Source: a virus
Taxonomy: Duplodnaviria; Caudoviricetes
IMG/VR virus record: IMGVR_UViG_3300043432_000041
Coordinates: 1-40,597 of that record
Length of the DNA: 40,597 nucleotides
Strand: one strand, 5' to 3'
Shown here: positions 6,578-39,609 of the stretch, in pieces
Layout: each line of letters begins with the position of its first letter
Numbering within the stretch: position 1 is the first letter of the stretch
Notes under the pieces: generated by a model
Seen by the model: the letters and a program-made list of their open reading frames with translations, nothing else
Databases searched by the model: none
What the model was told of the DNA's origin: nothing
Made by a program: the position numbers and the translations under genes

Positions 6578-6901
6578 TTAATAATTACCTGATTTAATTC
6601 CTTGGCGCAACTCATAGAGAGCTTTGCGTATATCCTCGCGTCTTTGCCGCTTATTCAGCTTTATCGGCTGTCTTGGCTTGATCGGTTCGTTGCCAAGTTC
6701 AATTCCGCCTATGGCCCTTGTTTCCGCCCTGAATTTGGATTTACTGTCTATAATGCGACCTGTGCCATGATGCTTCAATGGTTCCATATTGTCGGAGATA
6801 ATAGCAGTTGACCAAGGTTTCGGTTCATATCCCGCCATATCGGTAGGGATCATGCCATTTTCGTTGGCTGCTGGATGATTAGGTCTATAGACAAAGCGCA
6901 T
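6578..6901 (-). CDS. Hypothetical phage protein preceding the scaffold gene
   Basis: IIDSKSKFRAETRAIGGIELGNE motif; ATG 6901 lies in a 27-bp site arm (the track starts it at GTG 6913). Confidence 0.65.
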   Translation of the reverse strand: MRFVYRPNHPAANENGMIPTDMAGYEPKPWSTAIISDNMEPLKHHGTGRIIDSKSKFRAETRAIGGIELGNEPIKPRQPIKLNKRQRREDIRKALYELRQGIKSGNY

Positions 6902-6926
6902 TCGGTTTATCACCCATTAATGCAAT
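6900..6926. repeat. 27-bp 11-5-11 palindromic site, isolated copy
   Basis: ATTCGGTTTAT-CACCC-ATTAATGCAAT at the junction of two genes; left arm identical to those at 20694 and 30654. Confidence 0.7.
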
Positions 6927-10540: not shown

Positions 10541-10541
10541 G

Positions 10542-19951: not shown

Positions 19952-19979
19952 CTGGCACCTTTATAGGGTGTTAATCGAA

Positions 19980-20177
19980 TTAGGAGGCGATAAACCGATT
20001 TTCATCTGCGCCAACAGATACGACGCAATCCGGCTCATCCTCATAAACAACCAAGCCGGGAGCGATTAGATAGCAGGGGAATTGCTCGGCAAAGCTGGCG
20101 TCTCGGTAGCGTATTCCATCGCATTGATAGCCATTGTCCAAGGCGGTCTCTATTGCGAATTTAAGGGCTTTGTGCAT
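19980..20177 (-). CDS. Small cassette-like hypothetical protein
   Basis: 65 aa, AGGAG RBS, bounded by 27-bp sites. Confidence 0.55.
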   Translation of the reverse strand: MHKALKFAIETALDNGYQCDGIRYRDASFAEQFPCYLIAPGLVVYEDEPDCVVSVGADENRFIAS

Positions 20178-20229
20178 CTTACTCTCCTATGTTCGGTTTA
20201 TTAGGGATCAATGGGGTATTCAACTTTCG

Positions 20230-20497: not shown

Positions 20498-20695
20498 CTA
20501 AGACAATCCGAGTTCTGCGGCCTTTACGGGATCATATTTTTCAATCCCGAGCACAACCCTCCTAACGTATTCAGCCCTCGCGTCTGCCCTCTGTTGCTCC
20601 TTAGACGGATTCTTTTGTGTCCACCATTTCGGCTTCCGTCCTTGTTTTCGTTTTTTGTATTTTCCGCCGTATGCGTATGACATTTCATTCTCCAT
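20498..20695 (-). CDS. Small basic cassette-like protein
   Basis: 65 aa; first ATG supplied by the site arm ATAAACCGAATG. Confidence 0.5.
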   Translation of the reverse strand: MENEMSYAYGGKYKKRKQGRKPKWWTQKNPSKEQQRADARAEYVRRVVLGIEKYDPVKAAELGLS

Positions 20696-20728
20696 TCGGT
20701 TTATTGGGGATCAATCGAATGTGAGATA

Positions 20729-20757
20729 ACCATATAAACCTCAGGTTTAAATGTAAA
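20729..20757 (-). promoter_or_regulatory. Sigma70-type promoter with a palindromic operator in its spacer
   Basis: TTTACA-17 bp-TATGGT on the minus strand; spacer contains TAAACC-TCA-GGTTTA (20735-20749). Confidence 0.6.
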
Positions 20758-21752: not shown

Positions 21753-22424
21753 CTAATTATTTATTAATTCCAGTTGGCGCAGTTTTGGCTTTTGAATGAA
21801 GAAATCATCTTGTTTGGTAGCCTGAGATATTCTCTTACATGAAATATCGAAATATTTCTGTTCTATTTCAATACCTACAAATTTACGACCTAATTCAATA
21901 GCGGCAACACCAGTTGTACCTGAACCCATAAAAGGATCACAAATCAATTCTCCTAATAATGTTGATCTAGCTAATATTTTCCTCATTTGTCCGATAGGTT
22001 TTGGACAAGGATGATCTATTTTTTCAGCACCATCAGTTGCGCTAAAACTGTCCGGTTTTGACCCAGAACCACCATACGGATCTTTACCGTAATAAAGAAT
22101 AGGCTGCCAACACGTAAAACCCCAACTATTTAGGCCACTGCCACAAGGATAATAAATCGACCCGATATGTGTAGGTTTGGGATAATGGAAAAGATGTTTA
22201 ATTCCAGATGTTAAAATTACTCGTTTAGCAAGCAAACGGCATGTTTCAATAACAGGAATAACCGTTGAAATGACAAAATCCTCTGTATCTTCAATTAATC
22301 CATATTCAATGCCAACGCCATAAGGCGGATCTGTTACAACAGCGTCAATATTATCTAACGTAGGCAATATCTCGCGGCAATCGCCCAAATAAAGCGTAAT
22401 ACCTTCTGCAATATCTTCCTTCAC
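21753..22424 (-). CDS. DNA N6-adenine/N4-cytosine methyltransferase (beta class)
   Basis: GDC, VTDPPY, HPCPKP, DPFMGSGTTG, GIEIE. Confidence 0.93.
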   Translation of the reverse strand: MKEDIAEGITLYLGDCREILPTLDNIDAVVTDPPYGVGIEYGLIEDTEDFVISTVIPVIETCRLLAKRVILTSGIKHLFHYPKPTHIGSIYYPCGSGLNSWGFTCWQPILYYGKDPYGGSGSKPDSFSATDGAEKIDHPCPKPIGQMRKILARSTLLGELICDPFMGSGTTGVAAIELGRKFVGIEIEQKYFDISCKRISQATKQDDFFIQKPKLRQLELINN

Positions 22425-22627
22425 AGTTTGCCTTCCTGCCGCATTTGACTTTCGATCAAGACATAGTTCTCACCAAAGAATTCTCTTTGCTTGCGCGCTC
22501 GCTTGCTACGCTGTTGACCTCCGCTTCGCTCGCTTGCTGCTTTGCTCCGTCGCGTCCCTTACATTTTCTCGGTTTCCGCTTTTCGCAGGAGCCGCGCGCG
22601 TAGCAGAGATTGTGCCAACAGGTCGTG

Positions 22628-22942
22628 TCAAGGGCCACTTGTATGGCCACCGTCTTGTTTACCCCTACCGCTTGTGGTTTTGGAAAACTTTCGCGTGGTT
22701 CTTAACACTTTCCACTTCAAATGGCGGCGGCCTTTTCGATCCATGTCCTGAATATTTTCCAGCTGAGTACCGAGCCATAAATGATGGATATTCAAGCAAG
22801 ATGGGTTGTCGCATTTGTGTAAAACGCACATCCCCTTTGGGATTGAGCCATAATGCCATTGCCAGACGAGGCGATGTGCCTTTTTGCCTCCTATAGTTGC
22901 ATACCTGCCGGTATTTCTACCTTTGTTGAATATACAATCCAT
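22628..22942 (-). CDS. HNH endonuclease (homing-type)
   Basis: AHRLVW...[27 protein letters not shown]. Confidence 0.88.
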
Positions 22943-22987
22943 TGATTTGTCCTTTTAGAAAATCAAGATATGGGAATATCAACCCAA

Positions 22988-23503
22988 TTACGATGTTTCC
23001 CCAGAATCCCCAGAGATGGACGCAGCAATATCTTTAATCTTGCGACCATACCATTCGCATCGTTTCTTTAATTCAGGATCGGCCGCAACCATTTTCTTAA
23101 CCTTTTCATAGGCATACATGACGGTCGTATGATCCTTGCTGCCGAAGGCATTACCGATCTGTGGATAACTCTTTGCTGTGTAAACTCTGGCTAAATACAT
23201 GCCCAATTGACGGGCATATGAAATCTGTCTGGTGCGTCTTCCGGACACAACATCTAGTTTCGACACCTCCTCGTTTTCTACTAATAGATGGATGATTTCG
23301 TGAAGGATGCCGGTAGGAGCGACTTTCTTGGCGGCTTCTTGGTGTAAAAAGGCTCTAAGTTGTATTTCGAGGTTTGAAATTCTTAATTCTAGCTTTTCTA
23401 TGTATTTAATGTTATCCTTTTCAGTTGTCTTTGGTATTACCCCGTATTTTAATCTTTCGTGTACCTCGTTATAACTTGTTATTAAACTACCCTCGAAAGA
23501 CAT
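22988..23503 (-). CDS. DnaA C-terminal (domain IV) HTH-containing protein
   Basis: RRTRQISYARQLGMYLAR...SYPQIGNAFGSKDHTTVMYA. Confidence 0.85.
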   Translation of the reverse strand: MSFEGSLITSYNEVHERLKYGVIPKTTEKDNIKYIEKLELRISNLEIQLRAFLHQEAAKKVAPTGILHEIIHLLVENEEVSKLDVVSGRRTRQISYARQLGMYLARVYTAKSYPQIGNAFGSKDHTTVMYAYEKVKKMVAADPELKKRCEWYGRKIKDIAASISGDSGETS

Positions 23504-23510
23504 ATTGCCC

Positions 23511-23837
23511 TCATCTGTTGCGTGTTGCTGTTACAGGTTCACCATTGAACTTCCTCCACCTTGTTATCTTGCGCGGTTTCTTGATGCCCGCATGGACCCT
23601 CCGGACCCGCTTTGATTTGGCGATCCGGGGAATGTCGGTCTGGTAGGTTCTTTCGCTGTCGCAATTGATGCAGAGAACCTCGCAGTTCTCTAGGCTTGGC
23701 TCTCCTCCCAGAGCGTCAGGGATGCGATGATTGTACCGAAACTTGCCTGGATATAGCCGAGCCGAGCAAAACTCACAGGAACCGCCCGCACGGTCAAAGG
23801 CGGCCATTTTAACCTTGGCTGGGAACTCGCGGCGCAT
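23511..23837 (-). CDS. HNH-like endonuclease
   Basis: CEFC...NHRIPDALGGEPSLENCEVLCINC; the last His appears replaced. Confidence 0.75.
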   Translation of the reverse strand: MRREFPAKVKMAAFDRAGGSCEFCSARLYPGKFRYNHRIPDALGGEPSLENCEVLCINCDSERTYQTDIPRIAKSKRVRRVHAGIKKPRKITRWRKFNGEPVTATRNR

Positions 23838-24016
23838 TAATCGTCACCAATTTCAAGCACAGAAAATGAAACTATTTTTTTCTTATGAAACTTGTCTGGT
23901 GGCTTTCCATAACAATTTTGACATAAATAGGTTTCTATTCCTTGATAATAGACAAGTGAAAGCTTGCGGATTTTTCCGCAACAATCACATTCACCAAATA
24001 TTGTCTTGATAGCCAT
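23837..24016 (-). CDS. Small zinc-finger-like protein (59 aa)
   Basis: Hand translation MAIKTIFGECDCCGKIRK...YLCQNCYGK...; fills the gap with a TAATG overlap. Confidence 0.5.
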   Translation of the reverse strand: MAIKTIFGECDCCGKIRKLSLVYYQGIETYLCQNCYGKPPDKFHKKKIVSFSVLEIGDD

Positions 24017-24020
24017 ATAG

Positions 24021-24344
24021 CTAAAGCTTCATTGCGCGGAAATTAGAGGAACTTGTCCGCCAAGCCTCGATCTTCATGGCGGCAGCCTCGCGCATGGCGC
24101 GCAATTCTTCATAGTATCCCGCCGCCTTGGCCATCCGGTCAATTGCAAGAACATATTCCTCTGATGAGAGAGCTTCCCGTTCCTGAGCGCCCACACTCGT
24201 TTCGCAGCTCATTTTCATGGCCAAGGCTTTGTGATGGGAAAGCATCTTTTCGGTCCTGACGGCATCTTCCTTGGCCGCGCCGATTTCCTTGGCGTTGTCG
24301 CGTAGCCAATCCAGGGCCTTTTCCACATCTTCTTCACTTATCAT
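24021..24344 (-). CDS. Helical hypothetical phage protein
   Basis: 107 aa ending KIEAWRTSSSNFR. Confidence 0.6.
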   Translation of the reverse strand: MISEEDVEKALDWLRDNAKEIGAAKEDAVRTEKMLSHHKALAMKMSCETSVGAQEREALSSEEYVLAIDRMAKAAGYYEELRAMREAAAMKIEAWRTSSSNFRAMKL

Positions 24345-24540
24345 CGAATAGCTCCGGAATGAGTTTCTCTATGGCTATGCCGGTCAGCTTGGATATTTGC
24401 GCTGCCCGGTCATAAGGAATGCTGTCCCATTTCTGGATGGCTTGGGCAGTAATTCCTAATCCCAAAGCCAACCTGTGTTTGTTGCCGACGGCCTTGATAG
24501 CTCGTCGCAATCCAATAGATATTTTTTTTTCTGTGGACAT
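24334..24540 (-). CDS. Cro/YdaS-like HTH regulator
   Basis: AIKAVGNKHRLALGLGITAQAIQKWDSIP...IPELF; first gene of the leftward operon. Confidence 0.85.
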   Translation of the reverse strand: MSTEKKISIGLRRAIKAVGNKHRLALGLGITAQAIQKWDSIPYDRAAQISKLTGIAIEKLIPELFDDK

Positions 24541-24550
24541 CTAAAATCCG

Positions 24551-24589
24551 CTTGACATTTGAACTATAGGCTTATAAACCACAAGTTAA
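24551..24589 (+). promoter_or_regulatory. Rightward promoter with two tandem 15-bp operator-like sites in the divergent control region
   Basis: CTTGACA at 24551-24557; TGAACTATAGGCTTA (24560-24574) and TAAACCACAAGTTAA (24575-24589) resemble 20735-20749. Confidence 0.55.
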
Positions 24590-24617
24590 TAAGGAAAGCA
24601 AGCAAAAAGGTAATGAC

Positions 24618-24812
24618 ATGACACCGAGCGAAAAGATCCTGCACAGTTGGCTTAGTCAGGCTTGCGCCCTTTTAGGAGTCGAAGCCCGCGACCATGATGA
24701 AAACCGTTATTGGGATAGTCCAAAACAGCGAAAAGAAATTGCAAAAACAATTCGCAGTTTCATTGTCGCAGCAAATAAGGTTTTGGATAATCTCAAAGAG
24801 GACGCCGCCTAA
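24618..24812 (+). CDS. Hypothetical protein
   Basis: First ORF of the rightward arm; AAGG RBS. Confidence 0.55.
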   Translation: MTPSEKILHSWLSQACALLGVEARDHDENRYWDSPKQRKEIAKTIRSFIVAANKVLDNLKEDAA

Positions 24813-24813
24813 A

Positions 24814-24981
24814 ATGTCCGACATACAAATCTATATCAGCAAGCAATCCCGCGAGCAACTGGAAAAGACCGATCCGGAACTGCTTAACTATCTCGACATC
24901 CTCAATGTGGTAAACCAGCGTGATACAGACTGGCAATGGAGCAACGAACAAGGACCCCCACAATGGCATACCAAACGCTGA
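24814..24981 (+). CDS. Hypothetical protein
   Basis: MSDIQIY...; GAGGA RBS; internal start of track ORF 24694-24981. Confidence 0.45.
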   Translation: MSDIQIYISKQSREQLEKTDPELLNYLDILNVVNQRDTDWQWSNEQGPPQWHTKR

Positions 24982-25127
24982 AGCAGCGCCTAGATGCCCG
25001 CATAAAAGAATACGACAAGGCCAAGAAACAACATCGAAAGCGCAATCATCTGTTCAAGGAAATGAGTTATCTTCTGGTCAAGCTGCTGAAACGTGAAATC
25101 GCACAGGACAAAAGGAAGCCAATATGA
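24963..25127 (+). CDS. Small basic hypothetical protein
   Basis: MAYQTLKQRL...; AAGGA RBS; ATGA overlap downstream. Confidence 0.45.
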   Translation: MAYQTLKQRLDARIKEYDKAKKQHRKRNHLFKEMSYLLVKLLKREIAQDKRKPI

Positions 25128-25516
25128 ACATCGACGATGTATTCCCTTCCAAATATCTCAAAGCCTCCGATCTGAAAGGCCGCTCGGTTGCCGTAGTCAT
25201 TGACTCAATATCGATGGAAGAAATCGGCAATGGCGAAAACAAAATGATTTGCTACTTCGCCGGTAAGGACAAAGGCATGATTCTGAATAAAACCAATGCC
25301 AATAATATTGCGGTCTTATATGGACCGGAAACAGACAATTGGATTGGCAAGGAAGTGATATTGTTTGAAGCAATGGTCGATTTTCAAGGCCGCACTATTC
25401 CCGCGTTGCGAGTAAGGGGACCGCAGCCAAAAGACCAGCCGCGACAAGAACAAGTTACTGCACCTGTAAAGCCGCGCAAAAGTTCTGCGGAAATGAATGA
25501 CGATATCCCATTTTGA
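25124..25516 (+). CDS. Putative single-stranded DNA-binding protein
   Basis: FPSKYLKASDL, LNKTN, WIGK motifs and the SSB-like acidic tail DDIPF. Confidence 0.65.
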   Translation: MNIDDVFPSKYLKASDLKGRSVAVVIDSISMEEIGNGENKMICYFAGKDKGMILNKTNANNIAVLYGPETDNWIGKEVILFEAMVDFQGRTIPALRVRGPQPKDQPRQEQVTAPVKPRKSSAEMNDDIPF

Positions 25517-25748
25517 GGTGATGTCATGCAACTCGGAACCGCCATAGTATTCATCGGCATCTGCTACCTTTGTGTAGTTAGTCCTGGTTTTAGATGGCTG
25601 ACGGCTGCTGTGGTGGTTCTGATTTTTCTAGCGGCGTTAGGATACAAAATATGATGCCTGACAATGAAATTATATATTTGGTTATCCTATTTGGAATAGC
25701 CGGATTATGTGGGATGGCTCTGGAAATGATTGTTAATGGGGACAGGGA

Positions 25749-26582
25749 ATGACTTTTATCATTGCTGAAATCGGTATCAATCATAATGGCTCATTGCAGT
25801 CAGCTAAAGACTTGATCGATGCTTCCAAATGGGCTGGCGCGGATTGCGTCAAGTTCCAGAAACGAACGGTGGATATAGTCTATGCCGGTCATCTTGACGA
25901 CCCGCGTAATAGTCCTTGGGGAAAGACATTAGGCGAGCAAAAACGCGGCCTTGAATTGAGCCGTGCCGATTACGATGCAATCGACAAGCACTGTCGGGAA
26001 ATCAATATGCCCTGGTTCGCCTCGGCCTGGGACGTTCCAAGCTTGGAATTCCTCAAGAAATACGACTGCCCTTACAATAAAGTTGCCTCTGCCATGGCTA
26101 CTAATATTGAATTCATGTGGGCGGTAGCCAAGGAAAACAAACAGACATTCATTTCCACCGCGATGTGTTTATATGAGGATATTGATCGTATCGTTGGCGT
26201 ATTCAGGAAGAACGGCAATTGGGACAAGATAATACTGATGCATTGTGTCGGTACATATCCGGCAGCGGAGCACGATCTTAATCTAAAGATGATACCCGAG
26301 TTGATGAAGCAATATGATCTGCCGGTCGGCTATTCAGGACATGAGGCAAGCGTCAGCCCTTCGGTGATTGCTGTTGCCTTGGGAGCGGTAGCCATCGAGC
26401 GTCATATAACATTGGATCGCGCCATGTATGGCAGCGACCAAGCCGCCAGCTTGGAACCGCATGGCTTCAAAACTCTTGTGGATCAGATCAGGAAAATCCC
26501 ATCAATCATGGGAGACGGTGTTAAACGTATTCTAGATGCCGAAAAAACAGTTGCGAAGAAACTGAGATATTGGGAATCCTGA
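25749..26582 (+). CDS. neuB: N-acetylneuraminate/nonulosonate synthase family protein without a C-terminal SAF domain
   Basis: IIAEIGINHNG, VKFQKRT, MHCVGTYP, GYSGHE, IERHITLDRAMYGSDQAASLEP. Confidence 0.93.
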   Translation: MTFIIAEIGINHNGSLQSAKDLIDASKWAGADCVKFQKRTVDIVYAGHLDDPRNSPWGKTLGEQKRGLELSRADYDAIDKHCREINMPWFASAWDVPSLEFLKKYDCPYNKVASAMATNIEFMWAVAKENKQTFISTAMCLYEDIDRIVGVFRKNGNWDKIILMHCVGTYPAAEHDLNLKMIPELMKQYDLPVGYSGHEASVSPSVIAVALGAVAIERHITLDRAMYGSDQAASLEPHGFKTLVDQIRKIPSIMGDGVKRILDAEKTVAKKLRYWES

Positions 26583-26583
26583 T

Positions 26584-27156
26584 ATGGAAACCGCAACCGG
26601 AGCCGAATATATCTCGCAAGCCCATGTCAGGCACATCATGCGTTATGTCGATGCACGTGAAATGCTTGGAACTAAACACATGGTCATTGCCGATGCGGCA
26701 TGTGGAACAGGATATGGTTCTCATATTCTCGCCACTTATCATTCAGTATTTGGATTTGATAATTGCGATGAAGCTATTATTGAAGCTCGCAAACATCATA
26801 ATAAAGAATGCTTTTTTGAATACAGAAATATTTTACAGGCATCATTGCCGGGTCATTATGATGCAATAGTTAGCATTGAAACTGTTGAACACTTTGATAA
26901 ACCTATGGGAGAAAGACTAATACGAAATTTCTGGAATTCGCTAAGGATTAGCGGAACTCTTATTATATCTACTCCATACTGTGAAACGTCCGGACCTTCG
27001 CCTGTCACTAAACAGCATTTATGGGAATATTCCCTGACTGATTTCGAGCAAATGCTTACCTATGCCGGTTTTTCCGTAGAGAACATTAAGATACAACGTA
27101 ATGAAGGCAAGGCAGGAAGGCTTGGCTATTGCATGGCCAAGGCAGTGAAGCGATGA
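26584..27156 (+). CDS. Class I SAM-dependent methyltransferase
   Basis: DAACGTGYG, YDAIVSIETVEH, GTLIISTP. Confidence 0.88.
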   Translation: METATGAEYISQAHVRHIMRYVDAREMLGTKHMVIADAACGTGYGSHILATYHSVFGFDNCDEAIIEARKHHNKECFFEYRNILQASLPGHYDAIVSIETVEHFDKPMGERLIRNFWNSLRISGTLIISTPYCETSGPSPVTKQHLWEYSLTDFEQMLTYAGFSVENIKIQRNEGKAGRLGYCMAKAVKR

Positions 27157-27794
27157 TCCCTGTTTTCATTCTCGCCAGGGCTACTTCAACGCGGTTACCG
27201 CGCAAGCATTTCCTAGACTTCGGAGGCAGGACGGTCATCGAGCATATGGTGCTGCGCTGTCAGCATTTCGGCTTCAAACCGCATTTATGCGTTCCATTCG
27301 GGGAAGCAGAGGAATTCAACAAGCATCTTAATTATGTGGTGGATATATTCGGCGGTGATCGTGACAATGTAGAGAACAGGCTTTTGCAAGCTGCGAAATA
27401 TTTTAAGATAGATCAGTTTCACGCCCTGGATGGCGATGATTTGTTTTTCGATGAAGATGAGATTTATTATAGCGGCCCATATTACAAATCATTAGCTCCA
27501 CGTATTTCAGAATCTGGCAATGGAATATGTGGGACATCATATTCCTTAGATATCGGAAATAAAGATGAACGTCGTTTTCAGCCAAATAGACAATATCCCT
27601 GGCCGCAACGCCTGACACTGGACTATCCTGAAGATTATCATCTGCTATTGGCAGTCACCAGAATGGTCGGAGGCTTCATGGCTCCGCGTTCTGCTGTCGA
27701 TGAATTGTTCGTGCGAAATCCTGATCTGCATAAGATTAATTGGTTTAGAACTGAAGAATGGAAGATGCGGCAATTGAAAGAACGCCGTTTATGA
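27153..27794 (+). CDS. Cytidylyltransferase (SpsF/NeuA/KdsB-like CMP-ulosonate synthetase)
   Basis: ILARATSTRLPRK, DGDD, RLTLDYPEDY; ATGA overlap with the methyltransferase. Confidence 0.8.
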   Translation: MIPVFILARATSTRLPRKHFLDFGGRTVIEHMVLRCQHFGFKPHLCVPFGEAEEFNKHLNYVVDIFGGDRDNVENRLLQAAKYFKIDQFHALDGDDLFFDEDEIYYSGPYYKSLAPRISESGNGICGTSYSLDIGNKDERRFQPNRQYPWPQRLTLDYPEDYHLLLAVTRMVGGFMAPRSAVDELFVRNPDLHKINWFRTEEWKMRQLKERRL

Positions 27795-27807
27795 CAGATA
27801 AACCGAA

Positions 27808-28017
27808 ATGAGAACAACGGCACAGGTTTCACCAGAGGCAATGAGACACCTAGATTTATGGGTTCCAAAACACTTGCGCATATCTGCGTGGAACGCAGCA
27901 TTTTCTACCTACGTCAATCGATCAACCACGACAGATGGAACGGAAAGAAAATGGGCGGAAGAACGAGCAAATAGGTTTTGGCCTATTTACATTCCGGTTC
28001 CTGCTAACGCCCGATAA
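27808..28017 (+). CDS. Cassette-like hypothetical protein
   Basis: 69 aa between two sites. Confidence 0.45.
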   Translation: MRTTAQVSPEAMRHLDLWVPKHLRISAWNAAFSTYVNRSTTTDGTERKWAEERANRFWPIYIPVPANAR

Positions 28018-28028
28018 AGGGGATACGC

Positions 28029-28253
28029 ATGACAACAGCAACCTACGCTTACAAATCAGATGCCAGCGGCAAGCTTTTTGAAACGCAAGAGTTAGCAGAA
28101 AAAGATGAGATAGAACACGCGGCCGGTGTTCTCGGTGGTGTTGAACCAAATCATTTAATAAATGTCGCTACCGGAATGTCTACCTGTAAAGCAACAAGAG
28201 ATGCCATAGCCCGCCTTAACACCGCGATCCAGAAAATACCCGCTTCCGGCTAA
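28029..28253 (+). CDS. Cassette-like hypothetical protein
   Basis: 74 aa; AAGGGG RBS lies in the site arm. Confidence 0.6.
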   Translation: MTTATYAYKSDASGKLFETQELAEKDEIEHAAGVLGGVEPNHLINVATGMSTCKATRDAIARLNTAIQKIPASG

Positions 28254-28268
28254 GGACTAGTAAGGGCG

Positions 28269-28469
28269 ATGAACAAAATTCTAATTAGAACTCTGCGCCG
28301 CGTTTATAGAGAATACGGCCCGCGACAGGCGGGACCCAAATCTATCGCGGTCGTTCCCATTGAAGAATTTGCGAAGATGACAAAAAAAGAGGTTGATCGT
28401 TGGGACTTTAGGACTCGACATCTAATGCACGAAGTTGCGCGTGTAGTGTATCGCGCTTACCACATTTAA
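28269..28469 (+). CDS. Cassette-like hypothetical protein
   Basis: 66 aa between two sites. Confidence 0.5.
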   Translation: MNKILIRTLRRVYREYGPRQAGPKSIAVVPIEEFAKMTKKEVDRWDFRTRHLMHEVARVVYRAYHI

Positions 28470-28480
28470 ATGGAATACAA

Positions 28481-29572
28481 ATGAGCAATCCCGTAGTTGA
28501 ATTTGAGAAAGCATTCGCCGTCAAGATCGGCAGTCCTTATGCCATTGCCGTTAATTCCGGAACATCCGCCTTACATGCCGCATTGGTAGCCTGTCAGGTC
28601 AAGGGCGGCGAAGTCATCATGCCAGCTTTATGTCCAGCCATGGACGCCTTTGCAATCATTCATGCGGGAGCTACGCCGGTCTTTGCCGATGTGGATCCGA
28701 AGACCGGATTGATAACGGCAGAAACCATTAAGGCCGTCTATAACGAAACCAAGACTAGAGCCATAATAACCGTTCATTTGCATGGTTTGCCATGTGATAT
28801 GGACCCTATCATGCAATTTGCAGACAGGAAGAATGCGGCGCTATGGGTTATTGAAGATTGCGCTCAATCCCTGCTTGCCAAATACAAGGGAAAGAACGCT
28901 GGAACCATAGGCCATTTCGGTTGCTTTTCCTTCGAGAAGAAAAAGCACATGACCACCGGCAGCGAAGGTGGAATGATCATTTCTAATGATGCCACCTTGG
29001 CTATGAGAGCCAGGAAATTCGCTGGTATCGGTTACAAGCACATGACTGCGGAAGCCGGTCGAACATCGTTGAGTGCAGCAACGTATCAGCGGCCGGATTA
29101 CGAGCGTTTCGATACCATCGGATTGAACTACCGGATGTGCGAGGCGCAGGCTGAAATAGGCTTATGGAAGCTCGCATTCATCAATGATGTCATAGAACGT
29201 AGACAGACCATCGGCCTCATGTGGCAACATGCGTTAGGCGTCCAATGTCAGCCACATGATTACGATGCCACAAATGTATTCTATTCGGCAGCATATGATT
29301 ACAAAGGTGACGATTGGGTTGGTTTTTATGAGCAATTTTGCAAACAGAACGGGGATGGTTTCTATGCCATGCCGAAAGTTCCCTATCAGGAATCGGCATT
29401 AATCAACTATCGTAAATGGTGGAACCTGCAAGGCAAGGAATATGGCCATGAATGCCCTATTGCCGAAGGACTGCAAAAACGACTAATGCTCTTTAAGACC
29501 CATTACAAAACAATCGCCCATGCCACTCGTCAGGTTTCCATTTTGCATGATCTTATCCATGTCGGTGCTTGA
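28481..29572 (+). CDS. DegT/DnrJ/EryC1/StrS PLP-dependent sugar aminotransferase
   Basis: NSGTSALH, GATPVFADVDP, VHLHG, IEDCAQS, FSFEKKKHMTTGSEGG, GLNYRM. Confidence 0.93.
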   Translation: MSNPVVEFEKAFAVKIGSPYAIAVNSGTSALHAALVACQVKGGEVIMPALCPAMDAFAIIHAGATPVFADVDPKTGLITAETIKAVYNETKTRAIITVHLHGLPCDMDPIMQFADRKNAALWVIEDCAQSLLAKYKGKNAGTIGHFGCFSFEKKKHMTTGSEGGMIISNDATLAMRARKFAGIGYKHMTAEAGRTSLSAATYQRPDYERFDTIGLNYRMCEAQAEIGLWKLAFINDVIERRQTIGLMWQHALGVQCQPHDYDATNVFYSAAYDYKGDDWVGFYEQFCKQNGDGFYAMPKVPYQESALINYRKWWNLQGKEYGHECPIAEGLQKRLMLFKTHYKTIAHATRQVSILHDLIHVGA

Positions 29573-30236
29573 TAAATTCTCCCTCAAGGGCAAAACCGCC
29601 ATCGTAACAGGTGGCGAAGGACTTATGGGAACGATGATATGTGAAACGATTAAGGAACTTGGTGGAAAGGTATATTCATTCGATAAAAAGACGGGGATAG
29701 ATCTTACATCTTACCAAGATATTCTGGTTATGAGAAAGACAACAATCAGAGATACTATAAATATTATTGTGAACAATGCCGTAGGCAATCAAAAACCTGT
29801 AGATGCATTGGCGCGGTATTGGAATGAAGATATTGAAATTGGACTAACATCAGCATTGAAGATAATACAGACATTCTCAGAAGATTTATTAAACAATAAT
29901 GGAGTAGTTCTCAACATTGGTTCTGACCTGTCTCTGATTGCTCCGGATCAATCTCTATATCCTGAAGGAATGGTAAAACCGTTGAGCTATTCCGTAGTCA
30001 AGCATGGCATCATAGGACTGACGCGATACTATGCCTCATTGTGGGGCAGCAAGGCCCGCTGTAATTGTCTTTGTCCTGGTGGGATAGATGTAGGACAGAA
30101 ATTTCCCAAGATCCCCATGGGACGATTGGCAAGATTGGATGAAATGCAGGGACCGATAGCATTCCTGTTGTCGGATGCTTCTAGTTATATGACAGGTGCC
30201 GTGCTGACGGTGGATGGCGGAAGAACGATTATTTAG
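29559..30236 (+). CDS. Short-chain dehydrogenase/reductase (PtmA-like)
   Basis: TGGEGLMG, NNA, YSVVK (YxxxK), CPGG, YMTGAVLTVDGG; probable start ATG 29559. Confidence 0.88.
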   Translation: MSVLDKFSLKGKTAIVTGGEGLMGTMICETIKELGGKVYSFDKKTGIDLTSYQDILVMRKTTIRDTINIIVNNAVGNQKPVDALARYWNEDIEIGLTSALKIIQTFSEDLLNNNGVVLNIGSDLSLIAPDQSLYPEGMVKPLSYSVVKHGIIGLTRYYASLWGSKARCNCLCPGGIDVGQKFPKIPMGRLARLDEMQGPIAFLLSDASSYMTGAVLTVDGGRTII

Positions 30237-30262
30237 TATTCTATTTATGGGCCGTTAATCGA

Positions 30263-30430
30263 ATGAAAAAATCTCCAAAAGACCAGAAATACTTTTGGGC
30301 GCTCACTCGGAATGGCGCGATCTATTCAATGTGGATGACAAAGCGCGTAGCAACCGAGGTTAGGCAGTTTTACCAGCCGGGTAGCAAATTCAAATGGGGC
30401 GTGATTAAAGTCCGCGTCTCTCGCGCATAG
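30263..30430 (+). CDS. Cassette-like hypothetical protein (55 aa)
   Basis: Hand translation MKKSPKDQKYFWALTRNG...VRVSRA; ATG and TAG both lie in sites. Confidence 0.5.
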   Translation: MKKSPKDQKYFWALTRNGAIYSMWMTKRVATEVRQFYQPGSKFKWGVIKVRVSRA

Positions 30431-30450
30431 GAGAGGTAAAGGAGATACGC

Positions 30451-30654
30451 ATGGCAACAGTTTATGCCCTAGATGTTGTAACGGTTACTTTGGAAATCCC
30501 CATTCCGCTTACGGTGGCTTCCGACGATGTTCGTGAGTGGTTGAGATTCAATCTTGGTCATACGGGGGGTATTGATTGCGGGAATCCTCTGTTGGAATTT
30601 GAACCAAAGCCATCATCTTTCGACATTTCGTATCCAACGCGAAATGCAATCTAA
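30451..30654 (+). CDS. Cassette-like hypothetical protein
   Basis: 67 aa; AAGGAG RBS lies in the site arm. Confidence 0.6.
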   Translation: MATVYALDVVTVTLEIPIPLTVASDDVREWLRFNLGHTGGIDCGNPLLEFEPKPSSFDISYPTRNAI

Positions 30655-30684
30655 TTCGGTTTATGCGCCATCAAGGGGATACGC

Positions 30685-30918
30685 ATGATAAATGAACCCA
30701 TGCTTACAACTGATTTGGAAGATGATCCGGATACAAGTCCGAGGGGATACGCCAAAGTTCTGAGAACATTGGCAGGCCAACTCGGCCTAATGAATGATTA
30801 TTATTTACCGCTGATGGATGCGGCTAAGATTTTGGAAGTCACCGAACGAAAGAACTTGGTTGTTGGGGAACTTCCGCAGGATGTGGTTGATGAGATCAGG
30901 GATAGCGAACCGCGTTAA
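30685..30918 (+). CDS. Cassette-like hypothetical protein
   Basis: 77 aa; AAGGGG RBS in one site, TAA in the next. Confidence 0.6.
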   Translation: MINEPMLTTDLEDDPDTSPRGYAKVLRTLAGQLGLMNDYYLPLMDAAKILEVTERKNLVVGELPQDVVDEIRDSEPR

Positions 30919-31057
30919 CATCACATAAACCGAATGGACGACACCATGAGCGTGAACGGTCGAGTGAATGGTGGTAACAAGCGGCAAGCGGCGGAATGTG
31001 GGGATGCAAAACCGTTCTGAGACCCACCGCCCATTCGATTGATAAGCGATAAACCGA

Positions 31058-31258
31058 ATGAACATTGGTGCATTGCGATCAAGGAGAATGCCATCTAATA
31101 CAGATATGCCGGATGCTCTTTGTTTAGAAGCAGCAGACGAGATCGAGCGGCTGCAAGCAGAAAATAAAAGAATGCTGGAGGCGATAGAGTACGCCCATCT
31201 ATGCGGATTTGAATGGCCGTCCGATCCGTTTGCGCTTGATAGGCGAAAAACAGAATGA
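31058..31258 (+). CDS. Cassette-like hypothetical protein (EAADEIERL motif)
   Basis: 66 aa; motif common in small phage accessory proteins. Confidence 0.6.
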   Translation: MNIGALRSRRMPSNTDMPDALCLEAADEIERLQAENKRMLEAIEYAHLCGFEWPSDPFALDRRKTE

Positions 31259-31371
31259 AGAAAATTCGTTTTTATATTGGCAAGTTCTTGATGTCGGTTG
31301 GTCTTTTTATCATGCCGATGGAGGCACGTGCTGAGATAAAATACAATGTGCGTTTCCTTGATAGGAGATAA
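31255..31371 (+). CDS. Cassette-like peptide (38 aa)
   Basis: Hand translation MKKIRFYIGKFLMSVGLFIMPMEARAEIKYNVRFLDRR; start and stop lie in sites. Confidence 0.4.
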   Translation: MKKIRFYIGKFLMSVGLFIMPMEARAEIKYNVRFLDRR

Positions 31372-31468
31372 ATGGGGTACTGGCTAGGAGTACAAACCGA
31401 AGCCGTCTGCGCGCGGATGTCCATGAGCACATGGCGGTATAGCGCGCTTTATAATAGATAAATCGAAT

Positions 31469-31858
31469 CTAGTTAAGAGCCATGCGGCTTGGCCATCGAT
31501 AGGCAATTACTCCTCGAAGCGATCTTTCCCTCTCCCTGACGGCATGGCCGTCGTTTCCTGATTTGATGATCCATCCGGTTTGCGTTCTGCCGGTGATAAT
31601 CCCGACATGGTGATACCAAACAACCACAACTCCCACGGCAGCAGAACTAGCGCGACTGCCAAATCTTGTCCAATTGCGAGCCAGATTATAGGAACGGTCT
31701 GCAACTCCTAATTCATGTCTCAGCCACCATCCGCACCATGCATGAGGGCGCGGGTCACTAGGTGAACTGACTGTTGAATATCTGTGATGTCTTGCATGAG
31801 CAGGACTAACGGAAACCAGAACTAAAGCGGCTATGGCCGCAAAGACGCGAGTGGTCAT
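31469..31858 (-). CDS. Secreted CHAP/NlpC-like (Cys-His) protein
   Basis: Signal peptide ending AHA; AWCG...HHVG...SGN. Confidence 0.6.
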   Translation of the reverse strand: MTTRVFAAIAALVLVSVSPAHARHHRYSTVSSPSDPRPHAWCGWWLRHELGVADRSYNLARNWTRFGSRASSAAVGVVVVWYHHVGIITGRTQTGWIIKSGNDGHAVRERERSLRGVIAYRWPSRMALN

Positions 31859-31891
31859 TATAAATCCCCGTGCTTTGGTTGGTCATGGTCG

Positions 31892-32197
31892 TTATTGTCT
31901 CGGAAATGTCTTGCTGTTTCCAACAAGGTTTAGAATTTCCTGCATCGTTTTTGTTTGTATATCCAATCTGGTGATAACGTTTTTCTGGTTCGCTTCTATG
32001 ACGGCGACTTTAGCATAAATGTCTTCCAGTCGCGTCAATCTTTGATCTTGTAAGGGTTGACTTAGTTCTAATCTTTCAACCCTAGCATCCAATCGAACCG
32101 CCCATACGATCAATCCTAATGTCTGGAATAGCAGAAAGACAATAATGCTGACCGGCACTGATTTGCTAAGGTGCCATTGTTCTACAGATTGATCCAT
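31892..32197 (-). CDS. Membrane-anchored coiled-coil protein (lysis module)
   Basis: One TM segment followed by a coiled coil. Confidence 0.6.
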   Translation of the reverse strand: MDQSVEQWHLSKSVPVSIIVFLLFQTLGLIVWAVRLDARVERLELSQPLQDQRLTRLEDIYAKVAVIEANQKNVITRLDIQTKTMQEILNLVGNSKTFPRQ

Positions 32198-32203
32198 GAC
32201 ATT

Positions 32204-32491
32204 TTACTTTGATAATTCAATTTTGCGATCTTCCGCCCGTTTGATCTGATCCCGCGTATGAGACAGTTCTTCCTTCCATGCCTCATGCGCCGCAGTCCCT
32301 TCGGGCGGTGACACCGCCAATAGGCTTCTTAATTTTGTCTGATAAACTTCCGTAGCAACGTCGGCTTGTGAACGATCAAGTCGCTTAATATCCGCACTTG
32401 TGGCTGGCATTGGACCGCCAATAGTGGCCCACAGAGCGCCAATGGCCGTAATGGCTCCCGCTATACCTCCTATGCGTAAAATCCATTTCAT
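32204..32491 (-). CDS. Membrane-anchored protein (lysis module)
   Basis: N-terminal hydrophobic segment. Confidence 0.55.
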   Translation of the reverse strand: MKWILRIGGIAGAITAIGALWATIGGPMPATSADIKRLDRSQADVATEVYQTKLRSLLAVSPPEGTAAHEAWKEELSHTRDQIKRAEDRKIELSK

Positions 32492-32500
32492 CTATCGCGA

Positions 32501-32923
32501 TCACCTTTTAAATAGGTTAAGTAAATTCTTCAAATCCGCGACAAAATAAAATGATAACACAAGCAAAACGATTCCCCATAGATTATCGTCCAACTTATCT
32601 GTTGTGAAAATGCTGCATTTTCCCTGAAAGCAGGCATATCCAAGCAAAGAACCGATCACCTTGTCGAATACAAATACTTTGAACAGATAAAGAATGGGAC
32701 CAATAGCCGCTAATGCCCGCATGATTGCGTTGATGCGAGATCCAGCCTCAGCTACAATCACGGCGCGTTTATCGTGAAGCTCCTGTTCCCTAAGATTTAA
32801 CTGGTCTTTTTCCTGTTGGGTTTGGGCATTGACTTTAGCAATTTGAACATTGGAAATATCAGCGGATATGCTTTTGAATACGCCGCCAAGGCCAGTAAGC
32901 GCGGTTATTATTGTAAATAGCAT
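32501..32923 (-). CDS. Putative holin-like membrane protein
   Basis: About three hydrophobic segments; downstream of the endolysin. Confidence 0.5.
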   Translation of the reverse strand: MLFTIITALTGLGGVFKSISADISNVQIAKVNAQTQQEKDQLNLREQELHDKRAVIVAEAGSRINAIMRALAAIGPILYLFKVFVFDKVIGSLLGYACFQGKCSIFTTDKLDDNLWGIVLLVLSFYFVADLKNLLNLFKR

Positions 32924-32926
32924 TGG

Positions 32927-33145
32927 CTATTCTCTCAAGGCAGGATCATTCCAGTGACGAATGACCTCGGTCAGAACACCCATGCCAATCAGATAAAAGG
33001 GAAGATATTTGGAAGGAATGACAGGCGACATATCGGTTGCACTGGCTGTTGCTATCAATGCACCGACTGCAACCTGGATTCTGGCGAGAATGATGGTTCC
33101 GGACTTTTGCCATGAACCAAGCCAACCCTTGAATTTCTCCCACAT
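32927..33145 (-). CDS. Small 2-TM protein (holin candidate)
   Basis: Translationally coupled to the endolysin (TAATG). Confidence 0.5.
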   Translation of the reverse strand: MWEKFKGWLGSWQKSGTIILARIQVAVGALIATASATDMSPVIPSKYLPFYLIGMGVLTEVIRHWNDPALRE

Positions 33146-33811: not shown

Positions 33812-35467
33812 TTATCCGCGCCACTGCGCGAATAATGTCTGGTAACTTTCCGTTCCCTTGAATATCACGGTCGTTCCTGTAACTACCGCCTCCAATGGAT
33901 AAATTGTATTTATTCCGAGTAAAGGAGGCGATATGTATTTGGCATACAAAGTAGCAAATATATTTGCATTGTTAAGAACATTGCCGCCGCCCTGTACGCC
34001 CGTCGCAGTCGCCTGTGAATTGATGCCGATGCCGGTAAGTCCTACCGGATTAGTGCCACCAGCACCGGCAATCATCTGGTCGAAGGAAAAGGTGTAAGGT
34101 TCCTCCGCAAGTCCTGAAAGAACGGTTAGATTGTTTGCGGTCGTGGCATTGGATACTCTAAACGTACCGCCTGTCGCATAATTCCATGATGCCGTGCTCT
34201 CGCCAGCCTTCAGATAGAGCGGTACTTTATTGAAGGCATTCCAGATACCCCATTGGCGATTTTGGCCGAAGGTACGATGAAGATTGACCGTTCCCGCAGT
34301 TGCCGGATTGATGTAAATAGTGCCGAGATACAGCCCGCTCCCGGTCGCAACCGTGGAACTGCTGGCACCATTAAGGAATGTCTGCTGCGTATTGTTTATG
34401 AACAGACCATTGGCCCTGACCAGTGCGGTCGTAGTGCCACGCGCACAAGATCCAGGAGTTACAGAACCGCCGCCATTGGCCCATGAGACGCTTAAACCGA
34501 AGTTTAATGCGCCTCCGCTAGTAAATGCATAGACGTCATATAAATTGCTGACTGCTTGACTTGCACTCAGGGTAATCGCCGTTTCGCTGAAGGTCGTAAG
34601 GGAAAACACCCCTGCTACCGGAATGGGGATCTGGTTTCCGTTGAACGGCGTGTAATAGATCGTCCCGGCACTTGTGACATCGCCGGTAACAACAGGGGTA
34701 ATGCTGGTAGGAGTCAAATATCCTTGTGGTACGAGTTGCGGAGCGGCTGAATTGACCCATACGCTGCCGTTATAATATTCGATGACGCCGGAACCCGTAT
34801 TCAAGCCCATATCGCCAGCAGCCGGGGAAGGTGTTCGAGCCGCCGTAGCTCGTGATGGTACAAGCAGATTATCCTTGCTCAATCCGCCATAGAGCATGGT
34901 AATAGTAGCTCCGGTGGCATGTGTTGCCCCGGTTGTTCCCATTATTCCACGTGCGTTGATCGTCAGTCCCGCGGCACTCGCCACCGTGTAGGACATGATT
35001 TCATTGTTGGCTAAAAGATATCCGTTCGTAGCCCAATTGGTCGTAGAGCCTACCGCGATGGCACCCGTGCTTGCGGTAGCAAGCGATACGAGATTGCTGG
35101 ATGTAGTAGCGTCCGCAGTATCAAGAATTACGAATGTCTTGGCATAAGCCGACTGAGAAAATGCCGCGACCTGATCCGCATTCAATGTCAATGCATTCAA
35201 GCCATTGGAGGATAAACCAAGGCCATTGGCGCTGACGTAATAAAGACCTGTCGTAGCGTCAGCCGTGAATGAAATGGATGGCGCACCGGCTGATCCGGTG
35301 ATGGCTTTCAAGGCAGCTGTCATGCCTGCCTGTCCGTCGCGTGTCAGGCAATCGGACAGGCCGGTGGCGATGTCGCTAAAGTTTTGGTTTACGGCTGCGG
35401 ACAGTATCGTAGTATTGGGTACGAAAGAATTAATGATACTGAATGAGCCACTTCCGTTGAAAGGCAG
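33812..35467 (-). CDS. Tail fibre / spike protein with probable CTG start at 35467
   Basis: In-frame upstream extension PFNGSGSF...NFSDIATGLSDCLTRDGQ and AGGAGG RBS before CTG; PQGYLT, YYTPFNG, YLGTI, IWNAFN. Confidence 0.7.
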   Translation of the reverse strand: MPFNGSGSFSIINSFVPNTTILSAAVNQNFSDIATGLSDCLTRDGQAGMTAALKAITGSAGAPSISFTADATTGLYYVSANGLGLSSNGLNALTLNADQVAAFSQSAYAKTFVILDTADATTSSNLVSLATASTGAIAVGSTTNWATNGYLLANNEIMSYTVASAAGLTINARGIMGTTGATHATGATITMLYGGLSKDNLLVPSRATAARTPSPAAGDMGLNTGSGVIEYYNGSVWVNSAAPQLVPQGYLTPTSITPVVTGDVTSAGTIYYTPFNGNQIPIPVAGVFSLTTFSETAITLSASQAVSNLYDVYAFTSGGALNFGLSVSWANGGGSVTPGSCARGTTTALVRANGLFINNTQQTFLNGASSSTVATGSGLYLGTIYINPATAGTVNLHRTFGQNRQWGIWNAFNKVPLYLKAGESTASWNYATGGTFRVSNATTANNLTVLSGLAEEPYTFSFDQMIAGAGGTNPVGLTGIGINSQATATGVQGGGNVLNNANIFATLYAKYISPPLLGINTIYPLEAVVTGTTVIFKGTESYQTLFAQWRG

Positions 35468-38455: not shown

Positions 38456-39196
38456 CTATAGGAACATGCTCAGCAAGTTTCCGCCAAGACCCCATATTCC
38501 TTGATTCATTGCCGCGTTCTGCGCGGTATTCCCGAGATACTGGTTCTGCACGGCTTGCTGATAGTTTGGTGTCTGTACTTGTGCCTGTGGTGTTTGCACG
38601 GTCGAAGTATTCGGAAGGGTTGGAGGAGCAGACAATTCCGCTGCCGTCTGCATTGGTAATTTATATTCCTGAATTGCCTGATTGAAGGCTGTTGGTTCTG
38701 CCTGCATCAACAAGTTGGTGTAAGCATTATTGACATTACGCGATTGCAGATTTTGTGCGTTATTCCAAGCCTCATCCCCCGGTGCTATTCCTTGGTTTCT
38801 CAGGTTAGCGTCCAGATTTGATTGCTGCATGTTGAAGATGGGTTGCATATATTGCTGGCCCCATCCCATGACTTTATTAGTCAATGTCGATGGATCGATG
38901 TTCGGAGGTTGTCCGTATAACCCACCAAAACTACTTGTTAATTGTGCTGCCGCACTTCCTGTTCCGGCTCTTACTCTCTGCTGTGCATCAAGAATTGCCT
39001 GTTGTGCGGGTGACAAGTTGATATTAGCGGTATAGCCACCGGGAGAGTTAGGATCAGGCTGATAAGCCAAGCTACCAAATGGGGTAACTTGGTTAATCAT
39101 ATTGGCTTGTTGCTGTGCCTGCGCGGCTTCCTTACTGAAACCTAACTGTGTATTTGCAGTCGCATAAGGATCCGGTGCAGATGGTCCAAAACTCAT
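38456..39196 (-). CDS. Putative DNA transfer / pilot protein
   Basis: PSAPDP, NQVTPFGSL, LRNQGIAPGDEAW; Q/N-rich. Confidence 0.55.
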   Translation of the reverse strand: MSFGPSAPDPYATANTQLGFSKEAAQAQQQANMINQVTPFGSLAYQPDPNSPGGYTANINLSPAQQAILDAQQRVRAGTGSAAAQLTSSFGGLYGQPPNIDPSTLTNKVMGWGQQYMQPIFNMQQSNLDANLRNQGIAPGDEAWNNAQNLQSRNVNNAYTNLLMQAEPTAFNQAIQEYKLPMQTAAELSAPPTLPNTSTVQTPQAQVQTPNYQQAVQNQYLGNTAQNAAMNQGIWGLGGNLLSMFL

Positions 39197-39609
39197 TGGA
39201 TTGTCTTTCCAACTAGACGGGCAAGGTTCTTTCCGTAAAGCCCGTACATGATTGCATCGTGATCGCCATAGCCGAAATGGCGAACTCCTTCGTACTCGAA
39301 ACCGAGTTTCTTGATCTTCTTCGTTACCGACTTGTTGCTGCGCGATGTCCGCGCTGTGATGCGCGAAACACCTAATTGATTGACCGCCAACTTGGCCAGT
39401 GACTTCACGATGCCGAGCGTGATTGTCTTAGGCCCGTAATAGGATATCTCGATATCGTTGCCGTTGTAGGCATGATACAGACATGCCCCGACGATGTTGT
39501 TGTATTCGATGATACCTACTGCCCAATCATAGGGGACCGGCGTGTAATGGAACCTGTTGAAGGCCCATTCCGCCACTTGCTTGTCGCATCCGATAAGGAG
39601 GGTTTTCAT
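39193..39609 (-). CDS. GNAT-fold protein of the podovirus tail module
   Basis: QLGVSRITART...KLGFEYEGVR...MYGL; lies between tail tubular B and the ejection genes. Confidence 0.7.
   Translation of the reverse strand: MKTLLIGCDKQVAEWAFNRFHYTPVPYDWAVGIIEYNNIVGACLYHAYNGNDIEISYYGPKTITLGIVKSLAKLAVNQLGVSRITARTSRSNKSVTKKIKKLGFEYEGVRHFGYGDHDAIMYGLYGKNLARLVGKTIQ

Follow-up and report, generated by a model that had tools for sequence, protein, structure and literature searches.

A predicted start-associated 27-bp box at gene junctions of an uncultured freshwater phage

Dispersed junction motifs of phages have so far come from few cultured groups. In Cluster K mycobacteriophages, the start-associated sequence (SAS) and its extended form (ESAS) make up a box just ahead of the start codon in some of the non-structural genes; the part of the Cluster K account used here gives the SAS as GGGATAGGAGCCC, a 13-bp consensus that holds the Shine-Dalgarno (SD) core AGGAG and lies 3-7 bp before the start, and the same account describes the stoperators of Cluster A mycobacteriophages (Pope et al. 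2011, PMC3203893). In T4-type phages, the promoter-early stem-loop (PeSL) cassettes combine a sigma-70-type promoter with a G/C stem-loop terminator and, in the part of that work on which we draw, are likened to integrons by their authors (Arbiol et al. 2010, PMC2839356). Here we describe a 27-bp box in an uncultured phage of the Caudoviricetes, found in three freshwater metagenome runs of two studies (IMG/VR record IMGVR_UViG_3300043432_000041; the window analysed is the whole 40,597-bp stretch, a complete virus record with direct terminal repeats). The box recurs at gene junctions, including those of seven short open reading frames (ORFs) at 30263..31461 (+), and is distinctive in that it takes the ribosome-binding site's place and ends in the start codon. 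We tentatively favour, at a little short of even confidence, reading it from its sequence as a lineage-specific, start-associated gene-junction signal, predicted to be a cis-regulatory site for a phage factor. That reading is built on the observed anatomy of the box, its enrichment, orientation and ATG register, the lack of an SD at its genes, the unrelatedness of those genes, and strain breakpoints at boxes.

In gene sense the box reads [ATTCG]RTTKAT-N5-ATAAACCGA-ATG, an imperfect 27-base palindrome of two 11-bp arms around a 5-bp centre, which can be redrawn as 10-7-10. Eleven gene-sense sites, which we call A-type, align as [ATTCG]RTTKAT, a G+C-rich loop of 5 nt, ATAAACCGAAT, and then a G. 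When scanned with up to 3 mismatches against shuffled sequence (n = 100), the consensus ATTCGRTTKAT-N5-ATMAAYCGAAT gave 5 matches where 0.01 are expected, a count that none of the 100 shuffles attained. The right arm ATAAAYCGAAT (up to 1 mismatch) has 12 matches against 2.69 expected, and the exact inner core TTKAT-N5-ATAAA has 9 matches, at 7 places, against 0.29; TTCGGTTTAT, present in 7 copies, is the top repeated 10-mer in the genome. In 7 of the 12 aligned rows, 10 or 11 of the 11 right-arm positions agree with the consensus, and in four sites, each before an unrelated gene, all 11 are identical. Conservation of the left arm is weak, ranging from 4 to 11 of 11 positions with 5 of the 12 rows at only 4-7; its inner TTKAT is kept, and the stop codon of the upstream gene often lies inside it. 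Among the 5-base centres of the 11 sites, no two are alike. A second start motif (B-type), AARGGRGATACGC-ATG with the SD inside, occurs in 3 copies against 0.09 expected. The tally is therefore about 11 A-type sites and 3 B-type starts, in place of the 16 copies counted in an earlier reading of the letters alone (the sequence-only reading).

Counted by strand and allowing up to 1 mismatch, the right arm ATAAACCGAAT has nine copies. All nine are 30 nt or less from a gene boundary, and such 30-nt boundary windows make up 14.7% of the genome (binomial P = 3e-8, with the caveat that the starts at 6901 and 30934 in the gene list were picked with the motif in view). The enrichment at gene junctions that the sequence-only reading had anticipated is borne out by this count. 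Seven of the nine copies run in gene sense, and the remaining two are left arms. Four end exactly in ATG, one further copy is off by a single base, and the start codon of every box-associated gene is ATG. Genes behind A-type boxes are without an SD, whereas AGGAG or GGGG precedes the neighbouring genes. At 6926, 27782, 30238, 30654 and 30909, the stop codon of the gene upstream falls inside or just before the box. The start at 6901 is backed independently by homologues in five relatives, which begin MxWIYRPNHP and whose counterparts of this start show a TAATG or TGATG stop-start overlap.

In its working, the box appears closest to SAS/ESAS. As far as these are described in the part of the Cluster K account used here (PMC3203893), both are short, asymmetric, conserved boxes at gene starts, with one orientation and a preference for ATG; unrelated gene families follow them, an upstream stop sometimes lies inside the box, and both are absent from other phages and from hosts. 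Both also have an upstream imperfect inverted repeat whose departures from symmetry do not support an RNA hairpin. The sequences are nevertheless unrelated to each other: the A-type box is without an SD and has the ATG itself as its end, with only the B-type motif containing an SD, and the start box here is the right arm of an inverted repeat whose spacer is fixed at 5. Host and phage group are different as well. With no SD and no likeness to the SAS consensus given in that account, the A-type box is an analogue of SAS, not a member. The B-type motif AARGGRGATACGC-ATG is closer in form to the published SAS than the A-type box is.

The register with start codons also bears on a different explanation, in which the signal acts in mRNA: the right arm, AUAAACCGA-AUG, would be a translation-initiation element for cistrons without an SD, and the DNA dyad would be secondary. 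Variants of this idea are a translational operator of a RegA-like repressor, re-initiation or coupling after the left-arm stop, and the end of a leaderless or processed mRNA. We regard it as possible, though rather unlikely. The ATG register, exact in four of nine right-arm copies and one base off in a fifth, speaks for it, as do the absence of an SD at box genes, a right arm far better conserved than the left, the pointing of boxes with their genes, and the five boxes with an upstream stop in or just before them; the SAS authors likewise lean to a role in translation in the part of their account drawn on here (PMC3203893). Yet no ATG comes after the 31442 box, and the boxes at 19971-20000 consist of left arms alone. 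At 20217, moreover, an ordinary SD stands between the right arm and the ATG, 14 nt ahead of the latter, a stable hairpin able to draw stop and start close to each other is found at only 3 of 10 sites, and leaderless transcripts lack a consistent -35/-10 before the boxes. The terminal box at 31442, which stands at the operon end without a following gene, counts for the predicted cis-regulatory DNA site.

Signals of other kinds were examined at the boxes. Arm-to-arm pairing reaches 5-9 of 11 positions, and the departures are uncompensated. Folding was better than in shuffles at 3 of 10 sites (-3.3 to -9.8 kcal/mol) and no better at the other 7, the best hairpin of the set being that of 20694..20720 (-9.8 kcal/mol, z -3.5). 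A T-run after the boxes was looked for and found at none of the sites, and Rfam gave 0 matches over the window. An RNA hairpin, terminator or processing site was rejected as a general role on the basis of these results. A promoter scan returned 21 sites where 25.1 are expected, none of them at boxes in register, and the aligned sites share no -35 upstream of their left arms; a sigma-70 promoter for leaderless mRNAs was set aside because no shared -35/-10 stands in register with the ATG. The 9-base DnaA box has 16 matches against 9.55 expected, unclustered and none at the sites. The junction box is therefore no DnaA box, given that the bases which follow the arm are variable. Alphaproteobacterial hints led us to consider a CtrA-type box (a plasmid-like transposase and a holin of gene transfer agent (GTA) type); the spacing of the inner core is right, but the mismatches are consistent and the outer CCGAAT is left unexplained, and this candidate was set aside. 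The ends of the IS1595 element were rejected as the source of the arms. No convincing likeness was found around 17100-18250, where the likeness of the element to plasmid copies covers the transposase gene only.

Strain variation was read from assembled contigs, not raw reads, of the three runs, compared over 19000-33000. Six joints were found, and in two of them all four ends lie in or within 3 nt of boxes. The joint 30936>31037 (run X1, depth 10.6 against 54) skips 30937-31036, including a 28-aa mini-ORF; its start is one base past the 30909 box, and its end falls within the left arm of the one at 31033. The joint 19975>20691 (run X2, depth 5.2 against about 32) skips 19976-20690 with its three small ORFs, and leads from a point within a left-arm box to one 3 nt away from the box at 20694. 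Its contig is 87% identical over the methyltransferase gene, and because the 24 aligned letters include the 20694 box's own loop, the joint is at that site and not at just any copy of the box. One end of a third joint, 28028>28454, lies at a B-type start motif, and the other three joints are without the motif. Among these last, 20811>31149 (depth 2.1, side 21) is probably spurious. Run X3 has little or no cover over 29741-31141. The expectation that indels would end at the sites thus holds at both ends of two joints and at one end (B-type) of a third, and fails at three. The two motif joints each retain both flanking boxes. At every joint the skipped part may have been replaced, not deleted. 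Ends at boxes mean that accessory ORFs come and go there, a second distinctive feature of this phage being that population data from the same samples show it. At the two credible joints without the motif, the strain contigs skip an HNH gene (22628-22942, joint 22617>23037) and a holin-like gene (32501-32923, joint 32490>32933) almost exactly; these are polymorphisms the size of one gene, by presence and absence or by replacement.

In its population behaviour the box seems to resemble the PeSL cassettes of T4-type phages, reportedly also the subject of a 2014 paper by Comeau et al. Short conserved motifs flank single small ORFs in variable regions in both, and, as described in the part of the PeSL work used here, the flanked ORFs are ORFans, indels or replacements between close relatives end in the PeSL motifs, as two of the six joints do at both ends in the boxes here, and a dedicated recombinase was found in neither system (PMC2839356). 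Unlike PeSL, the boxes have no consistent -35/-10 and no T-run, and a hairpin at only 3 of 10 sites. Circles are known for PeSL according to the same part of that work, whereas the joints here are seen in contigs alone, and the present genome is that of a 40-kb phage, not of a T4-type myovirus.

The sequence-only reading had taken the boxes for core sites of a tyrosine-type recombinase supplied in trans, serving integron- or pdif-like gene capture and shuffling. It is easy to see how the idea arises: two inverted 11-bp arms surround a short centre, each single-ORF junction has one site, the last unit too ends in a site as integron cassettes do, and the joints end at fixed points of the box, directly after ATG+G and, within the left arm, after ATTC, in two separate places. 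We nevertheless consider it very improbable. Six-frame searches of the window with PF00589 (Phage_integrase) and PF00239 (Resolvase) gave 0 matches at E up to 1, with controls positive in 14/14 (PF00589) and 13/14 (PF00239) genomes, and scans of the ORFs with Pfam, PHROGs and NCBIfam found no recombinase. The earlier statement that no recombinase is visible therefore stands for the tyrosine and serine types, but it overlooked an IS1595-family DDE transposase with a zinc ribbon at 17235-18200 (-). The centre of a tyrosine-recombinase core is usually 6-8 bp, and classical tyrosine recombinases need matching overlaps in their partner sites; the centres here are 5 bp, or 7 bp in the 10-7-10 drawing, and all differ. 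At 30909, 31230 and 31442, degeneracy of the left arm leaves no adequate site for a second monomer. Deletion between direct sites should leave a single hybrid site, which is seen in the contigs of neither motif joint, both of which keep both boxes. Orientation and ATG register point to expression. What had been described as a symmetric core is thus an asymmetric, transcription-oriented site with an ATG-locked right arm, and shuffling stands only in so far as two of six joints end at boxes, with no support for a site-specific recombinase.

The exact pattern is at chance level in every collection scanned, with 2 loci in 185,579 species genomes, 1 locus in metagenomes and 30 single matches in viral contigs. 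No host with such sites was found among these genomes, metagenomes and contigs, and beyond chance the motif is absent in host-like genomes and the other collections. The likeness to integron attC sites and to pdif modules is one of layout: imperfect inverted repeats at single-gene junctions, variable centres, and a site after the last unit. A folded attC spans roughly 57-141 bp. Here, in contrast, the site is 27 bp with a 5-bp centre and is locked to ATG and gene orientation, the phage has no integrase and no Xer gene such as the XerC/D on which pdif relies, and the joints show no single hybrid site.

Two further readings were weighed. In one, the box would be a mere recombination scar or linker, spread with cassette insertions and without a regulatory role, the ORF sitting inside a split palindrome and the strain joints representing 'empty' sites. 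In the array, every ORF does have a right arm ahead of it and a left arm, inverted, behind it, and the 6926 box lies exactly at a synteny break against five relatives. Should the two sides of each motif joint be directly continuous, a right arm and its ATG would there run straight into the inner part of the following left arm. At either joint, however, the skipped part may instead have been replaced. A scar would be expected to decay, yet the right arm is the same over all 11 positions at four sites whose genes are unrelated; selection on expression is suggested by the presence of the inner core in fusion with ordinary SD starts as well, and no enzyme is known that would make such a scar. We judge this explanation improbable. 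To about the same degree we doubt the other, an integron-like array without an integron integrase, in which each ORF would split a palindrome at its centre, preceded by the right arm ATAAACCGA-ATG and followed by the left arm in inverted form. An unoccupied site would then be a right arm fused to a left arm, forming a two-codon ORF, and cassettes would move between co-infecting strains by a motif-specific mechanism while the box supplied the start codon and expression signal. Searched for beyond this genome, the fused right-arm/left-arm form gave one chance match, inside a gene of an unrelated phage.

Under the cis-regulatory reading that we prefer, a dimeric, phage-encoded DNA-binding protein would recognise the dyad, and its binding would tune transcription through the junctions or the translation starts there, as stoperators and SAS/ESAS are thought to do. 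In co-infecting strains, ordinary homologous recombination would cross over in the boxes because the same short sequence flanks unrelated ORFs, so that single ORFs could be gained, lost or replaced as cassettes in the manner of PeSL, without a dedicated recombinase. If the box is both an expression signal and an exchange point, it would offer a compact model for plugging ORFan genes into operons, and a natural 27-bp part for doing so; if it is an operator only, it would be one more lineage-specific regulon. The stoperator, a 13-bp site bound by a known immunity repressor, shares with the box its many dispersed and asymmetric copies, a position in short intergenic gaps, an orientation with transcription, and a relation to an early-promoter operator. 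The box differs in being a 27-bp dyad locked to start codons, with candidates only for its repressor. With no integrase encoded, the phage gives no evident sign of lysogeny.

A Cro-like or a DnaA-domain-IV protein is a candidate binder of the box, because the half-site ATAAACC (15 copies against 5.5 expected) also builds two palindromes, better ones than the boxes, that are embedded in promoter-like sequence. Palindrome O1 (20731..20753, -) has the half-sites head-to-head, opposite to their arrangement in the box, and sits between the promoter-like hexamers TTTACA and TATGGT. Palindrome O2 (24571..24593, +) lies in the divergent region beside the Cro-like gene, where its ATAAACC half-site overlaps a TATAAA box 15 nt after TTGACA, a promoter read from sequence. 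The Cro-like protein is a 68-aa helix-turn-helix protein at 24334..24540 (-; Pfam P22_Cro, E 7.8e-11), and the other candidate is a 171-aa protein at 22988..23503 (-; Pfam Bac_DnaA_C, E 2.5e-22; NCBIfam DnaA, C-terminal part). The latter consists mainly of DnaA domain IV and has homologues of 31-44% identity in 4 of the 5 relatives. The shared half-site suggests that one phage DNA-binding protein may read both the early-promoter operators and the junction boxes.

Several observations weigh against this preferred explanation. The half-site common to O1 and O2 is short and A+T-rich, and its arrangement there is reversed; four of the five relatives have a homologue of the DnaA-domain protein, yet lack the motif. 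The motif occurs in no other genome scanned. A DNA operator gives no obvious reason for an exact ATG register, which an mRNA-level signal fits better. The joints 22617>23037 and 32490>32933 are credible and carry no motif, and the joint evidence as a whole consists of assembled contigs, in which replacement and deletion are indistinguishable.

The search among relatives covered 79 loci around the capsid gene, with 0 sites, and five whole relatives that have only structural genes in common with this phage. A dispersed start motif of their own was found in none of the five, whose repeats are clustered, phage-specific palindromes: GTAACGCGTTAC occurs three times at 7827-7992 of G003, a similar one lies at 7074-7144 of G001, and TTCCGGTGGAAT occurs five times at 34375-34750 of G004, clustered and never dispersed at gene starts. 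A role as operators or iterons is probable for these clusters in G001, G003 and G004. No useful relatives came from searches that started from the SDR, the methyltransferase or the 77-aa ORF.

Individually, the boxes differ in how they meet their genes. On the minus strand, the A-type box 6900..6926 has a left arm, ATTGCATTAAT, that carries the TAA stop of a 715-aa gene and a right arm, ATAAACCGAAT, that leads into the ATG at 6901 of a conserved 107-aa gene; the genes upstream of it, 6917-10981, are unmatched in the relatives. Two tandem left-arm-type boxes, 9 nt apart and without a right arm, occupy 19971..20000 (-) upstream of the methyltransferase gene 19364-19951, where one strain joint ends at 19975. 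The A-type box 20191..20217 (-) matches at 10 of 11 positions in its right arm, after which come an AGGAG ribosome-binding site and the ATG at 20177. The next, 20694..20720 (-), ends in the ATG at 20695 beside the strain joint end at 20691, and has the same arms as the 31033 site; the sequence-only reading was correct in calling the two sets of arms reverse complements, which they are because the genes at 20694 are on the minus strand. On the plus strand, the A-type box 27782..27808 has the TGA stop of gene 27129-27794 at the edge of left arm and loop, and behind its right arm, ATAAACCGAAA, the ATG at 27808 stands one base away from exact register. A B-type start motif, AAAGGGGATACGC-ATG, with an SD, lies at 28016..28031 (+) and contains the strain joint end 28028.

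The remaining sites, all on the plus strand, are the eight that the sequence-only reading had presented as equal 27-bp copies. Its eight strings are all present where it placed them, but they are not equivalent: those at 30238, 30654, 30909, 31033 and 31442 are good, that at 31230 is degenerate, that at 31352 is the inner core only, and that at 30420 is an SD-containing B-type start motif. The A-type box 30238..30264 has a variant right arm, GTTAATCGAAT, and ends in the ATG at 30263. At 30420..30453 a poor palindrome (4/11 and 6/11) holds the B-type AAAGGAGATACGC-ATG at 30438-30453. The site 30654..30687 is an A/B hybrid, in which a perfect left arm, ATTCGGTTTAT, and a 5-nt loop precede ATCAA and GGGGATACGC-ATG, the B-type start occupying 30672-30687 with its ATG at 30685; the joining of a perfect left arm to a B-type motif implies that the A and B types share their upstream part. 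The box 30909..30935 combines a perfect right arm with a weak left arm (5/11), in which gene 30685-30918 has its TAA stop; the ATG at 30934 forms the end of the box, just before the strain joint start at 30936. The best A-type box, 31033..31059, ends in the ATG at 31058, with the strain joint end 31037 inside its left arm. The degenerate A-type box 31230..31256 (left 7/11, right 9/11) is contained in the 3' end of gene 31058-31258, and its closing ATG, at 31255, is part of an ATGA stop/start overlap. At 31352..31378 only the inner core is kept, as TTGAT-AGGAG-ATAAA, in which the loop is an SD; here the TAA stop runs directly into the ATG at 31372. The terminal box, 31442..31468, closes the plus-strand block, and the convergent gene 31469-31858 ends directly after it.

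Between these sites lie the seven mini-ORFs, at 30263-30430 (55 aa), 30451-30654 (67 aa), 30685-30918 (77 aa), 30934-31020 (28 aa), 31058-31258 (66 aa), 31255-31371 (38 aa) and 31372-31461 (29 aa). All-against-all BLASTP of the small proteins gave 0 pairs with E below 0.01; they are unrelated, which rules out gene duplication as the source of the repeat. The 67-aa ORF has 0 homologues among 5.8 billion clusters. Distant relatives of the 66-aa ORF occur in six viral loci with a common LEAADEIERL core, and as none of the six carries the motif, the box belongs to this phage and not to the genes. The 66-aa ORF also has one partial homologue, P0002, which is 85% identical over residues 1-34 and unrelated beyond them. 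The two compared form a mosaic joint within a small gene.

The terminal repeats of the phage are about 127 bp long, as implied by a repeated 12-mer at an offset of 40,470. PHROGs and Pfam identified terminase, portal, major head protein, tail proteins and amidase, together with RusA, two HNH endonucleases, DNA methyltransferases, a Mom-like protein and a match to a GTA-type holin. The plus-strand block at 24.6-31.5 kb comprises a nonulosonic-acid sugar cluster and then the mini-ORF run. The pathway, of sialic, pseudaminic or legionaminic type, occupies 25749-30236 (+) and includes a NeuB synthase, an S-adenosylmethionine (SAM) methyltransferase, a cytidylyltransferase, a DegT aminotransferase and an SDR. 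An MptE-like protein is encoded in the structural module (2954-3817, -) and a GNAT near the tail genes (39193-39609, -); together with the sugar pathway, these hint at a possible glycosylation of the virion or of host surface structures.

The IS1595-family transposase gene stands within a stretch of about 2 kb (16464-18418) that is missing in relatives between a conserved 103-aa gene and the terminase. Its nearest relatives at the DNA level are 66-71% identical and lie on alphaproteobacterial plasmids, which may be a weak hint to the host. The portal homology is split, profile residues 16-484 falling in 12887-14482 (-) and residues 509-680 in 10971-11813 (-). These parts are adjacent in the relatives and here are separated by three ORFs (11813-12890), two of which have similar upstream sequences.

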